A stretch of DNA of 23,116 nt from Candidatus Nanohaloarchaea archaeon (GTDB lineage: Archaea > Nanohalarchaeota > Nanosalinia > Nanosalinales > Nanosalinaceae), in NCBI GenBank assembly GCA_042217695.1, contig JBDGSE010000023.1, forward strand, positions 1-23,116, written 5' to 3'. The notes under the pieces were generated by a model. The model saw only the letters and a list, made by a program, of their open reading frames with translations. It was not told the DNA's origin and made no database searches. Below are positions 1,225 through 11,390 of this stretch, in pieces (the first letter of the stretch is position 1; each line of letters begins with the position of its first letter). The translations under genes were made by a program, and so were the position numbers.

Positions 1225-2628
1225 ATGCCCGAGGTAAAGATAGGGCTGGAGACCCACGTCCAGCTTGACACGGAGACAAAACTTTTCTGCGGCTGCCCGA
1301 ACGAGGAAGCGGAAGAACCGAACACCCATGTATGTGAGACCTGTCTCGGACACCCGGGAAGCAAGCCACGGCTCAACCGGGAGGTACTTGAACAGGCCGT
1401 CAAGGTCTCGGAGGCGCTGCAGTGCGAGATAGAGGAGGACATATTCTTTTCCAGGAAGACATACTTCTACCCGGACATGTCCAAGAACTACCAGATAACA
1501 CAGTACGAGCTGCCTGTAGGCGTCGAGGGCGAACTGGAGGTAAAGGTCGGCGACGAAAAGAAACCGGTGGGGATCGAAAGACTCCACATCGAGGAGGACC
1601 CTGCCAAGTTGAGACATATCGGGGGCTCGATCTCGAATGCGGATTACACACTCGTGGACTACAACAGGGCGGGGACTCCGCTACTCGAGATCGTTACCGC
1701 ACCTGACTTTGAATCGCCGGAAGAGGCCCGGGAATACCTGAACCAGCTCGTACAGATACTTGAATACCTCGGTGTGTACTCCCCGGATTCCGAGTTCTCG
1801 ATAAAGAGCGATGCCAACATCTCCATCGAGGGCGGTGCCAAGGTGGAGGTCAAGAACATAACAGGTACAAAAGGCATAGAGAAAGCGCTGAACTACGAGA
1901 TATCACGTCAGAAACAGCTCACAAAAAGAGGTCGGGAAGTAGAGCAGGAGACACGGAGCTACTCCGCTGGACAGGAGATAACCGAGAAACTCCGGCAGAA
2001 GGAGACCGAGGAGGACTACGGCTACATATTCGATCCGGACCTCACCCGGCAGAAACTGGACGAAGACTTCCAGGAACGCCTCAGAGAACAGATACCTGAA
2101 CTGCCTCACGAAAAAGTTGAACGCTTCAGAGACGAATACGGCATATCTGACAAACAGGTAGAGTCACTGGTCACAGAACAGGCGCTTGCAGATGATTTCG
2201 AAGCGCTGGCAGAAGAACATGAAACATCGCTCGTGGCGTCCTGGCTCACCGGCGAACTGAAGAAGGTCCTCAACTACAACGAGATCTCCTACGCAAGCTC
2301 CGGTATAGAGACCGGGTGGATAGAGTACCTTATCGGGCTGCTGGAGGATGACCGTATAACAGATAGAAACGCCGAACTCGTTCTCAGGGAGATAGTCGAG
2401 GAACCCCGCCATCCTGAGCGCGTTGTGGAACAGGAAGATCTGCTCAAGGACGAGTCCATCGATGAATACGTTGAAGAAGCGATAGAGGAAAACCCTGGAG
2501 CAGTCGAGGACTTCAACGCGGGGGAAGAAGGCGCGGTCAACTTCCTCGTGGGCCAGGTGATGCAGCTTTCAGGTGGAAAAGCGGACCCGAAGACCGCGAG
2601 AGAAAAAATAATGGAGGAGCTAGAATGA
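1225..2628 (+). CDS. gatB: Asp-tRNA(Asn)/Glu-tRNA(Gln) amidotransferase subunit B
   Basis: KIGLETHVQL, KLFCGC, CETCLGHPG, RKTYFYPDMSKNYQITQY, RLHIEEDPAK, VDYNRAGTPLLEIVT, DANIS, VEVKN, DYGY, and C-terminal FLVGQVM..GKADP. Confidence 0.98.
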   Translation: MPEVKIGLETHVQLDTETKLFCGCPNEEAEEPNTHVCETCLGHPGSKPRLNREVLEQAVKVSEALQCEIEEDIFFSRKTYFYPDMSKNYQITQYELPVGVEGELEVKVGDEKKPVGIERLHIEEDPAKLRHIGGSISNADYTLVDYNRAGTPLLEIVTAPDFESPEEAREYLNQLVQILEYLGVYSPDSEFSIKSDANISIEGGAKVEVKNITGTKGIEKALNYEISRQKQLTKRGREVEQETRSYSAGQEITEKLRQKETEEDYGYIFDPDLTRQKLDEDFQERLREQIPELPHEKVERFRDEYGISDKQVESLVTEQALADDFEALAEEHETSLVASWLTGELKKVLNYNEISYASSGIETGWIEYLIGLLEDDRITDRNAELVLREIVEEPRHPERVVEQEDLLKDESIDEYVEEAIEENPGAVEDFNAGEEGAVNFLVGQVMQLSGGKADPKTAREKIMEELE

Positions 2629-3530
2629 GGGCGGACGACTTTCTCGACGAACACGGAATCGAGTATACAGTGGTGCACCAGGACAACCCCACGAAGACAT
2701 GCGATGACGCGGCTATGGAGCGCGGACTGGATACCTCGCAGATAGTGAAGAGCCTGATAGTTCGTAGAGACGGGGAATACTTCCATGCACTGGTCCCCGG
2801 CGATAGAACGTTGTCCGAGAAAAAGTTTGGAGAACACAGGATGGCGGAACCGGAGAAATCGAAACAGATAACAGGCCAGGAATCCGGAACCGTACACCCT
2901 TTTTCCTCGGAGCTGAAACACTTCGTCGACGAGAGACTGTTCGAGGAGGATACACTCTCCTTCACTACCGGGGACATACTGAAAGGAGTTGTCATGGACT
3001 CATCCGAGTTCAGGGAAGGCCTGGAAGCTGCCGGCTTCAAGTTCGAGACCGGGGATTACGTGGTATCCGAGGAGGAAGACCTGGAGGAACTCGAGGAGAA
3101 AGGCCTCGACAGCGAGGCCGCAAAATTCGTCGCCGACAAAGGCCTCAGATCGGCCTTCAACCGGCTGCAAACGGAACACAGGCCAGGAGAGATAGTCCGG
3201 GCGTTCAAGAAACTCAGGCGAGAAGACATCCAGGTCACAGAACAGCTCTCACGAGAACTTATCCAGCGCTCGGAGAACGAGACCCACATGCAGAAACTCG
3301 CCGAGGGATACGCCGAGACAGGAGAGTTCCCGGACGAAACCGATTTCGAGCTGGAAAAAGTTGTTGAAAACGCGGTCGACGAGAACCCGGAGGCGGTGGA
3401 GGATTTCAACGCCGGGAAGGACTCCGCCATAAACTACCTTCTGGGCCAGATTATGCAGCAGACCCAGGGAAAGGCCGACGGCGAGAGAACCCGGGAACTA
3501 CTTGAGGAAAAACTCGATGACAGATCTTGA
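2625..3530 (+). CDS. YbaK/ProX (INS-superfamily) aminoacyl-tRNA editing domain fused to a GatB helical/YqeY-type C-terminal domain
   Basis: N-terminal ~135 aa: FLDEHGIEY, IVKSL (conserved Lys), VPGDR, TGQESGTVHPF. C-terminus ENPEAVEDFNAGKDSAINYLLGQIMQQTQGKAD matches the GatB tail. The start overlaps the gatB 3' end (ATGA, 2625-2628). Confidence 0.9.
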   Translation: MRADDFLDEHGIEYTVVHQDNPTKTCDDAAMERGLDTSQIVKSLIVRRDGEYFHALVPGDRTLSEKKFGEHRMAEPEKSKQITGQESGTVHPFSSELKHFVDERLFEEDTLSFTTGDILKGVVMDSSEFREGLEAAGFKFETGDYVVSEEEDLEELEEKGLDSEAAKFVADKGLRSAFNRLQTEHRPGEIVRAFKKLRREDIQVTEQLSRELIQRSENETHMQKLAEGYAETGEFPDETDFELEKVVENAVDENPEAVEDFNAGKDSAINYLLGQIMQQTQGKADGERTRELLEEKLDDRS

Positions 3531-4209
3531 AGAACTGGTCGAAAAAGAAGTGGAAGAACTTTCCGGGAGAGAAGATGTCAGGGCCGTTGCTGTCGTCGGA
3601 AGTTATGCCCGTGGCGAGGACGAACACAACGACATCGATTTCTTTATCATAGTCGACGGTGACTGGCGCAGACGCGAGGGAGAGATGGTCGACGATATAC
3701 TGGTCGAACGGTTCTACAACTCGCTTGAAGGCGCGAAGAACTATCTCGATGGAGACAGCTGGTACACCTCCTACCACTGGTACAGGAACGCCGAGCCGCG
3801 GTACGACCCGGAATCACTCTTTGAAGAACTGGCGGACCTGGCCGAGGAGAAAAGAAACGAGAAGATGTCTGTAAACGAGGAAGAACTGCTCTACACTATC
3901 TGGGACAAAAAGCAGGACCTGGACACCCGGGACGTGGGCCAGAAACGCTACCTGATGAACGAATTCTTCAACTACCTCTTGTTCCAGCACTACCTTTTGA
4001 AGGGAGAGGTACCGGTGAAGACCAACTACCGTGTGAAGAAGCTGAAGGAGTTCGACGGCTACATGTACAAGCTTTCACAGGACTTTCTCACGTCGAGCAG
4101 CACCGGTGATAAGGAAAGGACACTGGAAAAGATGATAGACCACGTTACGAGAAACATTGGGGATCCCGGCCCGGAGTGGGAGACCGAGAAGGAATACATG
4201 GGGGACTAG
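3517..4209 (+). CDS. Pol-beta-type nucleotidyltransferase domain protein with C-terminal helical domain
   Basis: AVVGSYARG-x5-DIDFFII (GS...DxD motif) and a downstream LVE acidic residue. ATG at 3517 overlaps the upstream gene end. Confidence 0.8.
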   Translation: MTDLEELVEKEVEELSGREDVRAVAVVGSYARGEDEHNDIDFFIIVDGDWRRREGEMVDDILVERFYNSLEGAKNYLDGDSWYTSYHWYRNAEPRYDPESLFEELADLAEEKRNEKMSVNEEELLYTIWDKKQDLDTRDVGQKRYLMNEFFNYLLFQHYLLKGEVPVKTNYRVKKLKEFDGYMYKLSQDFLTSSSTGDKERTLEKMIDHVTRNIGDPGPEWETEKEYMGD

Positions 4210-5695: not shown

Positions 5696-5869
5696 GTTGA
5701 TCACCCAGCGGCGGATTCGTGTGAGCAGATCCCTGAATCGCCTGATCAAAACCATTCACACCTTTTTGTTCTCGTCTTATCTTTATAAATCAAACATCCT
5801 GCCCCTGTGAACCGGTTTTTGCCACGGAACATAAGTAAACGAGACGCCTGGGCCCCATGGTAACGGGTT

Positions 5870-6003
5870 CGAGTCCGGCGGGATTTGAACCCGCGACCTA
5901 CAGCTTTCTTCACACAGCTTCCTGACAGGAAAGATGTTCAGGCATTTTCGCCCCGGGAAGCCGGTGTTAGGAGGCTGTCGCTCTTCCACTGAGCTACGGA
6001 CTC
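5870..6003 (-). tRNA. tRNA-Arg(CCT) with 62-nt intron at 37/38 (intron 5906-5967)
   Basis: Reverse complement: GAGTCCG TA GCTC AGTGGAA GAGC G ACAGC CT CCT A [intron] A GCTGT AGGTC GCGGG TTCAAAT CCCGC CGGACTC G. All stems pair; no encoded CCA. Confidence 0.93.
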
Positions 6004-6028
6004 ACACCGAGGGTTTCTCCTGGAATTC

Positions 6029-9375: not shown

Positions 9376-9509
9376 GCGGCGTTGGTCCAGTGGCTAAGAC
9401 ACGCGCTTGCCAACACGACTTCCTCTCCGAGGTGGTCGTTCGAGAAGCTCGCCCATAAGCTTCGAAAGGCAAATTGCGCGTAACCCGGGTTCAAATCCCG
9501 GACGCCGCA
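9376..9509 (+). tRNA. tRNA-Gly(GCC) with 62-nt intron at 37/38 (intron 9413-9474)
   Basis: GCGGCGT TG GTCC AGTGGCTA AGAC A CGCGC TT GCC A [intron] T GCGCG TAAC CCGGG TTCAAAT CCCGG ACGCCGC A. Canonical BHB: TTGC/GCAA helix with CAA and ATT bulges. Confidence 0.95.
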
Positions 9510-10832: not shown

Positions 10833-10977
10833 GGGCCCGTAGCTCAGCCAGGACAGAGCGAGCGGCTTCGGCCAACTGGTTACGCTCAGTTGACACGCAA
10901 ACACCGCCGTTAGCGGTGGTCGGCGTAGCCGACTGGAGGATACCGCTAGGTCCAGGGTTCAAATCCCTGCGGGCTCG
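10833..10977 (+). tRNA. tRNA-Arg(TCG) with 70-nt intron at 37/38 (intron 10872-10941)
   Basis: GGGCCCG TA GCTC AGCCAGGACA GAGC G AGCGG CT TCG G [intron] A CCGCT AGGTC CAGGG TTCAAAT CCCTG CGGGCTC G. BHB: CTTC/GAGG helix with GGC and ATA bulges. Confidence 0.95.
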
Positions 10978-11109: not shown

Positions 11110-11175
11110 CTTCGTCGACCCACCGCTTATATTTTAAAGTGTTTGTAGCATCATTCACCTATACGGCTGTTCTTT

Positions 11176-11258
11176 GCGGGGGTAGCCAAGTGGTCAAAGG
11201 CGCAGCGTTCAGGGCGCTGTCCCTTAGGGGTTCGCAAGTTCGAATCTTGCCCCCCGCA
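11176..11258 (+). tRNA. tRNA-Leu(CAG), intronless
   Basis: GCGGGGG TA GCC AAGTGGTCAAA GGC G CAGCG TT CAG GG CGCTG, long variable arm, GCAAG TTCGAAT CTTGC CCCCCGC A. Confidence 0.97.
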
Positions 11259-11390
11259 ACTTAACTTTTTAACCTCAGATCAGTTTCTGAACATAATTAT
11301 CTCCAGGAAATTTCCTGAGCTGTCGATTATTTAATCTAGCTGAGAAGTATGTTAAATCTTTTAAATCTTTACAACGCTTACAATGTTATT

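Follow-up and report, generated by a model that had tools for sequence, protein, structure and literature searches.

An INS-type editing domain joined to a GatB-type tRNA arm beside gatB in nanohaloarchaea: a candidate quality check on indirect tRNA asparagine loading

When Asn-tRNA is formed indirectly, a mischarged tRNA is a deliberate intermediate, and the guards described for it are channelling, slow release and elongation-factor discrimination, with no dedicated hydrolase among them (PMC3367201). In this route, GatB consists of cradle, helical and tail domains, and tRNA binding by GatCAB depends on the tail, which reads the tRNA's D-loop and variable loop (PMC2811023). Removal of wrong residues from tRNA is the business of, among others, the INS superfamily, whose domains hydrolyse the aminoacyl ester via a Lys (which positions A76) and the 2'-OH of A76 (PMC10164551), this Lys and a GXXXP loop being the catalytic hallmarks common to the superfamily (PMC11286415, PMC10164551). 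According to a 2024 review, members other than INS are single-domain (exceptions being ProXp-ala on ProRS and a plant C-terminal domain) and three INS subfamilies were still uncharacterised (PMC11295145). Here we describe a protein that brings these two worlds together. It is encoded next to gatB in a stretch of 23,116 nucleotides from a Candidatus Nanohaloarchaea archaeon (assembly GCA_042217695.1, contig JBDGSE010000023.1, positions 1 to 23,116; this whole stretch is the window below), it fuses an INS domain to the tRNA-binding part of GatB, and it is probably an undescribed quality check on indirect tRNA asparagine loading.

Each half of the fusion has well-known counterparts. The free-standing INS trans-editors – YbaK (1dbu/2dxa), ProXp-x TTHA1699 (2cx5/2z0k), APE2540 (1wdv), ProXp-ala (5vxb) and YeaK/ProXp-ST1 – have in common with it the fold (Z 14-18), the Lys and the GXXXP loop, but identity is 20-26%, and the GTVHP and SFTTG motifs as well as the GatB tRNA arm are the fusion's own. 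GatB of GatCAB (3ip4, 3al0, 3h0l) has the same helical and tail module, extra tail helix and GK motif, whereas the fusion has no cradle, a shortened helical domain and a module that branches in a clade of its own. A GatB-like arm likewise sits on another tRNA enzyme in D. radiodurans GlnRS-YqeY and in the N-terminal domain of eukaryotic GlnRS (2hz7, 3tl4, 4ye6; PMC1865053), where it serves a synthetase and not, as here, a putative hydrolase. Recruitment of an editing domain to indirect aminoacylation has a parallel, known by genomics, in the tRNA-Thr editing domain on SepRS or beside SepCysS (PMC8762117), which differs in its DTD-like fold (DTD, D-aminoacyl-tRNA deacylase), in belonging to the Cys pathway and in having no GatB arm. 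Finally, removal of an un-amidated intermediate as a fidelity step has a precedent in H. pylori GluRS2, which hydrolyses excess Glu-tRNA(Gln) (PMC3241645), but there the synthetase itself does the work, whereas the fusion would be a dedicated editing protein. No paper on the fusion was found in the open-access literature (subscription papers and supplements being outside the scope); an earlier note on this DNA, made from the sequence alone, had regarded such an architecture as one not known to have been described. The architecture is visible in databases, however: in the Atlas, 83 members having both Pfam domains make up a cluster with an automatically assigned name.

Architecture and conservation of the fusion

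By fold and motifs, the fusion belongs to the INS superfamily and is neither YbaK proper nor GatB. Pfam tRNA_edit (PF04073) matches residues 21-117 (E 1e-14, 55 bits, cut-off 25.5), and an AlphaFold2 model built on an alignment of 30 sequences (mean predicted local distance difference test, pLDDT, 92.2; predicted TM-score 0.75) gives the N-terminus the YbaK (INS) fold that the earlier note had anticipated. In this model, residues 1-147 superpose on APE2540 (1wdv) with Z 18.0 and a root-mean-square deviation (rmsd) of 1.9 over 142 residues, and on H. influenzae YbaK (1dbu) with Z 17.1, while for the INS domain Foldseek returns 2z0k, 2cx5, 1wdv and 1dbu at E ~1e-8 to 1e-9 (2.5e-9 for 2z0k). The hallmarks first read by eye, IVKSL (K42) and GTVHPF (G88-P92), are both there, and in the alignment with 1wdv and 2cx5, the nearest solved relatives of the domain (23-26% identity), the Lys and GXXXP loop fall on the Lys and a GGVPP loop. 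The YbaK equivalog TIGR00011 reaches 36 bits against a cut-off of 153.25, and NF007951 is not among the matches listed.

The C-terminal half is GatB in origin. Pfam GatB_Yqey (PF02637) matches residues 240-297 above its cut-off (E 1.5e-17), the tail is identical to that of the adjacent GatB at 30/59 positions in an ungapped BLASTP alignment (E 5e-16), and a second hand count from the translations again gave the 29/52 identities first noticed over the last 52 residues. What had been described as a GatB tail preceded by a middle region loosely echoing the GatB helical domain is actually the whole helical and tail unit and an old GatB paralog. When a profile built on the C-terminal halves of 17 fusions is compared with one built on 18 C-termini of GatB (hhalign), the match extends over 149 columns with a probability of 99.8%, and residues 146-301 align with the N-terminal domain of yeast GlnRS (3tl4) over 151 residues, with a middling Z of 6.4 and an rmsd of 4.7. 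The echo in the middle thus holds within the whole C-terminal half, but is weak when the middle is taken alone (probability 54%, E 1.3e-4, 42 columns, with 1/40 block shuffles outscoring the match). The module scores far better as GatB (E 7e-16) than as GatE (E 1e-6), and its tail is of GatB type, aligning without gaps to the GatB tail and having the motif Gly in 30/30 copies and K/R after it in 22/30, while the GatE tails seen have another motif; published descriptions give GatB tails an extra helix and a KXGKXK-like motif, and GatE tails GXXAXGX (PMC2811023). The GatB cradle domain (PF02934) has no match in the protein, and NF004012 gives 58 bits against a cut-off of 338. Without its cradle the fusion cannot be an amidotransferase and, given the three-domain make-up of GatB, is best described as a GatB tRNA arm with an INS domain in the cradle's place.

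A protein search with the fusion gave 203 matches, and residue counts use the 120 listed (one of them the query) together with 19 more distant homologs. Each of the 120 spans the full length and has the two domains; where an organism is named, it is a nanohaloarchaeon. K42, G88, H91, P92, R33, G59, G116 and R199 are invariant in all 139 aligned homologs and C26 is kept in 138 of them; H54 is invariant in the 120 and mostly Gln in the 19. Conservation is highest in the INS part (0.72), followed by the tail (0.64) and the helical part (0.55), and the ratio of non-synonymous to synonymous substitutions is well under 1 in all three (four genome pairs, with synonymous divergence often near saturation). 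The family-specific residues His91, His54, Arg33, Cys26 and Thr114 might be fit for a polar or acidic side chain.

The tails of fusion and GatB were also compared in 30 locus pairs (positions 3345-3518 versus 2443-2625 in the window). At the Lys-rich motif GatB is acidic (D/E in 27/30) and the fusion basic, with K/R in 22/30 fusions versus 3/30 nanohaloarchaeal GatBs. Three loci (L032, L031, L004) have long identical runs common to the fusion tail and its own GatB tail (16 residues in genome G004), with many identical codons (22/31), possibly through local gene conversion. Over the 30 pairs, tail identity to the genome's own GatB is 0.490 versus 0.472 when permuted (p 0.0012), own exceeding the mean of others in 19/30 only. 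Co-evolution with GatB is not used here as support, because three genomes (G003, G004, G034) drive the signal and relatedness and composition are uncontrolled.

Distribution, relatives and origin

The full-length fusion occurs in 32/70 nanohaloarchaeal genomes, with two more holding a piece at a contig end. In 21 genomes it directly follows gatB, in nine it is one small gene away, in one (G005) it lies elsewhere and in one its position is undecidable, so that the pairing of both domains with gatB synteny, which the earlier note had proposed to look for, holds for 30 full-length copies within one gene of gatB. Presence amounts to 17/28 for near-complete genomes and 5/8 for single-contig ones. 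An assembly chimera is ruled out by these copies and by a contig from a second sample of the same study, which covers positions 1616-3299 and spans both the gatB/fusion and the domain junctions. There are also 20 genomes in which the sequence downstream of gatB is visible and the fusion is not there, presence and absence being mixed within genera; the gene, which such loci and some single-contig genomes lack, is therefore not essential, and it probably underwent several losses.

Relatives outside the nanohaloarchaea come from a HMMER scan of 1.84 billion representative sequences and from follow-up searches. The same architecture is found in 13 non-halophile proteins (the two named are from Hydrothermarchaeaceae and Thermoplasmata), in 3/38 genomes of the phylum of G071 (away from gatB in both loci checked) and in eukaryote-like metagenome proteins, the origin of which is unproven; for the latter no genomic locus was found, only partial matches of 21-56%. 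Eight proteins (P0140, P0144, P0147, P0148, P0153, P0159, P0273, P0291) keep the fusion motifs, and some of them begin with long stretches, rich in Ala and Arg, that have a eukaryotic look.

An INS domain is also found inside full-length GatB, in 19 proteins (10 read directly, nine placed by hidden Markov model coordinates): it is N-terminal in nine and inserted between two N-terminal cysteine pairs in 10. One is named Diapherotrites, and the GatB equivalog cut-off was passed by both proteins compared with it. Members include L146:5804-7660 (genome G281), P0292, P0305-P0320, P0137 and P0141. In G281 the INS-GatB gene ends an aspS-gatC-like-gatA-gatB cluster, in 1/401 genomes sampled in that phylum. 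In the same sample, a bacterial-type AspRS that ends in an INS domain was seen in 6/25 fetched loci (25 of 38 matches). Examples are L121, L124, L127, L128, L131 and L133, as well as P0232 and P0222, and their motifs may resemble those of YeaK/ProXp-ST1. Three other INS fusions are an INS domain N-terminal to an archaeal-type ProRS (P0265), a triple INS repeat (P0183) and an INS domain joined to a RuvX-like domain (P0218).

In a quick maximum-likelihood tree of 153 INS domains, the 55 rows labelled as GatB-linked and two short strays fall on one side of a branch with an SH-like approximate likelihood ratio test value (SH-aLRT) of 96, and 30 nanohaloarchaeal stand-alone domains with 66 other INS rows fall on the other. 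The GatB-linked family is thus a clade of its own among these rows, which include no named subfamily references. The tree gives no support to descent from the stand-alone YbaK paralog of the same genome. Two AspRS-INS rows lie outside the GatB-linked clade, which makes the AspRS fusion a separate recruitment, to the other partner of this pathway. The comparison of the tail with GatB that the earlier note had in mind was made on the whole C-terminal module: in a quick tree (from which the motif filter missed several GatB rows, and in which GatE sits on a long branch, its placement uninformative), 25 fusion modules split from 33 GatB and three GatE rows with SH-aLRT 98. This separate clade rules out a recent duplication of the neighbouring gatB and suggests that the module has one old origin and is no local copy. 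A simple history, in which a duplicate of an INS-GatB ancestor lost its cradle, is allowed, if not demonstrated, by the trees.

A proposed role in asparagine transamidation weighed against its rivals

The pathway setting points to tRNA(Asn). In genome G000 (83% complete), gatA, gatC, gatB and gatE are all present and no AsnRS passes the cut-off; its AspRS has His and Pro at the marker positions of a non-discriminating enzyme. Since gatA and gatC are both present, a substitute for GatC or GatA is ruled out as well; a second GatA-like match was noticed inside a 1424-residue open frame in another genome (L051, G061:C3:564281-565501). GatE passes its cut-off in 64/70 nanohaloarchaeal genomes and archaeal GatCAB prefers Asp-tRNA(Asn) (PMC2811023), so that GatB here should serve tRNA(Asn), and the presence of GatE and absence of AsnRS make this tRNA a likelier target than tRNA(Gln) for the fusion, whose module scores so much better as GatB. 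The fusion is found in 0/5 genomes with AsnRS and in 0/8 with a bacterial-type AspRS (four confirmed, four inferred), both sets being small and made up of related genomes. In G013, G019, G063 and G064 the bacterial-type AspRS replaces the archaeal one, and the fusion is in none. Genome G006 (88% complete) has AsnRS, GatE and ProRS, and no gatA, gatB or gatC match; what it retains, one of the two strays of the INS tree, is a 141-residue relic of the fusion's INS clade (L147:2415-2840, G006:C29, P0151) with no tail nearby, in which K42 has become R, G88 has become E, and C26 and R33 are lost (its single-sequence fold, pLDDT 39, is uninformative). Gene order, fusion within one polypeptide and decay when the pathway goes thus show, at the level of genomes, three kinds of link to GatB.

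Our favoured reading, held with somewhat better than even confidence, is that the fusion belongs to a GatB-linked INS subfamily and, acting in trans, deacylates aminoacyl-tRNA with tRNA(Asn) as its target. The GatB-type arm would grip the same tRNA elbow as GatB grips and bring the CCA end into the INS site, where a wrong residue would be stripped from tRNA(Asn) and the tRNA recycled. This residue may be either un-amidated Asp, in which case the protein would be an overflow valve when amidation trails a non-discriminating AspRS, or a non-cognate residue that GatCAB cannot convert (of Ser/Ala size, Glu or D-Asp), and the two options share the weight of the reading about equally. The earlier note had proposed a proofreader of indirect aminoacylation acting on tRNA(Asn) and tRNA(Gln): its architecture, conservation, gatB synteny, INS hallmarks and link to transamidation (the INS-GatB clade and the G006 relic) hold up, but the tRNA(Gln) target looks less likely. 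A bolder version, which we regard as possible though doubtful, is that INS domains were recruited at least twice to archaeal Asn transamidation (the GatB clade, in cis or in trans, and AspRS) and that the fusion is a dedicated Asp-tRNA(Asn) hydrolase. It would then be the first member of the INS superfamily to act on an acidic residue, and indirect aminoacylation would have its first dedicated proofreader.

Several points weigh against a deacylase aimed at tRNA(Asn). The characterised INS members take small neutral residues (Ala, Cys, Abu, Ser or Thr; PMC11286415), none of them acidic, and the YqeY tail of D. radiodurans GlnRS is an affinity enhancer (PMC1865053), which means that a tail need not give specificity. 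The pocket Pro of the tail is retained in 6/30 fusions versus 29/30 GatBs, and H91 and H54 are not common to the INS domains inside full GatB, so each form may have a substrate of its own. As many as 11/28 near-complete genomes lack the gene, as do 3/8 single-contig ones (G032, G046, G065), even though archaeal AspRS and GatCAB are present in these three, and it does not adjoin gatB in G005, G070 and G071. The AsnRS pattern comes from five related genomes only (61-93% complete), the relic from one genome, and the trees from quick searches with SH-aLRT only, 4/55 labelled rows being fragments with no tail shown.

The same small-substrate record is what favours an editor with broad specificity for small residues on mischarged tRNAs (Ala/Cys-tRNA(Pro), Ser/Thr-tRNA), in which the GatB arm would only tighten binding, for instance at high salt, and the linkage to gatB would be a relic of origin. 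Several INS members have no tRNA selectivity (PMC11286415, PMC11295145), appended affinity domains are known from D. radiodurans GlnRS-YqeY (PMC1865053) and the C-terminal domain of plant ProXp-ala (PMC11295145), the ProRS of G000 is of the archaeal family with no INS match (PF04073), and the fusion tail is the more basic one at the Lys-rich motif. We nevertheless consider such an editor unlikely, if well worth keeping in mind, because the stand-alone INS paralog of nearly every genome could work alongside ProRS, catalytic GatB itself can contain a domain of the same INS clade, the homolog decays in G006, which has AsnRS yet keeps ProRS, and non-halophile relatives have the same arm. Lower still is the standing of a non-catalytic carrier, whose INS pocket would cap the end of Asp- or Asn-tRNA(Asn), shield it from EF-1alpha or hydrolysis and pass it to GatCAB. 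The conserved Lys has a role in binding and accommodation (PMC10164551), so its conservation is no proof of catalysis; Asp-tRNA(Asn) is known to be retained as a safeguard (PMC3367201), His91 in the loop is unusual, and an INS-like fold is found in the P. aeruginosa protein SadB (Foldseek and structural alignment). This carrier is improbable all the same, since an arm that binds the same tRNA surface as GatB would lead to competition and not handover, and since INS domains catalyse largely with help from the backbone and the substrate, and the fusion has both hallmark elements in intact form.

It is very improbable that the fusion targets Glu-tRNA(Gln) or the two amide tRNAs together. Bacterial GatB arms do serve both tRNAs (PMC2811023), the module has its weak match to GatE models, and most nanohaloarchaeal copies have Gly or Ala where GatB has the pocket Pro (Gly in the GatE tails seen), but the near-ubiquity of GatE, the preference of archaeal GatCAB, the extra helix and GK motif that GatE lacks (PMC2811023), the position of the gene after gatB and not gatE, and the decay of the homolog in G006 despite a kept GatE all argue against such a target. 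Hardly credible is a stand-in for a missing D-aminoacyl-tRNA deacylase with no special tie to tRNA(Asn): DTD2 (PF04414) is found in 0/70 nanohaloarchaeal genomes and DTD1 in 0/3 tested, but genomes without the fusion likewise lack DTD2, and DTD2 is present in 5/5 non-nanohaloarchaeal genomes tested, of which four have an INS protein linked to GatB, or a fragment of one, and the fifth has an AspRS-INS.

The fusion is thus a real, conserved and apparently undescribed variant, and the genomes make a good case that it has a part in forming Asn-tRNA. If the deacylase reading is true, an INS subfamily tied to GatB would mean (i) an editing checkpoint added to the Asn transamidation pathway and (ii) a new substrate class or targeting mode for the INS superfamily. 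The protein is amenable to direct test, being soluble and 301 residues long, with non-halophile homologs and clear mutants (K42A, H91A and tail deletion).

Layout of the locus and neighbouring genes

The overlap of the gatB stop with the fusion start (Table 1), already remarked upon in the earlier note and seen again here, suggests that translation of the two genes may be coupled.

Table 1. Features of the gatB-fusion locus (positions in the window).
Feature	Position	Strand	Basis
gatB, amidotransferase subunit B, full-length, 467 residues	1225..2628	+	NF004012 (NCBIfam) 557 bits, cut-off 338; Pfam GatB_N and GatB_Yqey
ATGA, overlap of gatB stop and fusion start	2625..2628	+	sequence
Fusion, INS/YbaK-fold domain with GatB-type helical and tail module, 301 residues	2625..3530	+	Pfam, BLASTP, fold match, profile alignment
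INS-superfamily editing-type domain, residues 1-147	2625..3065	+	PF04073 E 1e-14; Foldseek; Z 18.0 to 1wdv
Lys42, conserved INS lysine	2748..2750	+	K in 120/120 listed and 19/19 more distant homologs
G88-T-V-H91-P92 loop, GXXXP with family-specific His	2886..2900	+	G88, H91, P92 invariant in 120/120 listed and 19/19 distant homologs
GatB-type helical domain, shortened, residues ~150-236, with invariant Arg199	3072..3332	+	hhalign (weak alone); structural match to 3tl4; R199 in 139/139
GatB-type tail (YqeY-like), residues 241-298	3345..3518	+	PF02637 E 1.5e-17; 30/59 identity to adjacent GatB
Nucleotidyltransferase-fold gene, 14-nucleotide overlap with fusion	3517..4209	+	PF01909 E 2.6e-6; syntenic neighbour

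The nucleotidyltransferase-fold gene follows either gatB or the fusion, and many relatives have only its last 85-100 residues, as a separate gene; it is also found where the fusion is missing and was for this reason left out of the system. A promoter and terminator scan gave chance level only, the promoter type scanned being the wrong one.

A separate stand-alone INS paralog is found in nearly every nanohaloarchaeal genome. In family f1 (L063-L066, L078-L080, L086) it often adjoins a gene for a class I W/Y synthetase, presumably TyrRS, and in families f4/f5 (L061, L069, L074, L081) one for a class I I/L/M/V synthetase, which we take to be IleRS. As for tRNA genes, ARAGORN called neither tRNA-Asn nor tRNA-Pro in the whole G000 genome, 83% complete as it is, and found four tRNA genes in the window (5869-6004, 9376-9509, 10833-10977 and 11175-11260), three of them with introns.

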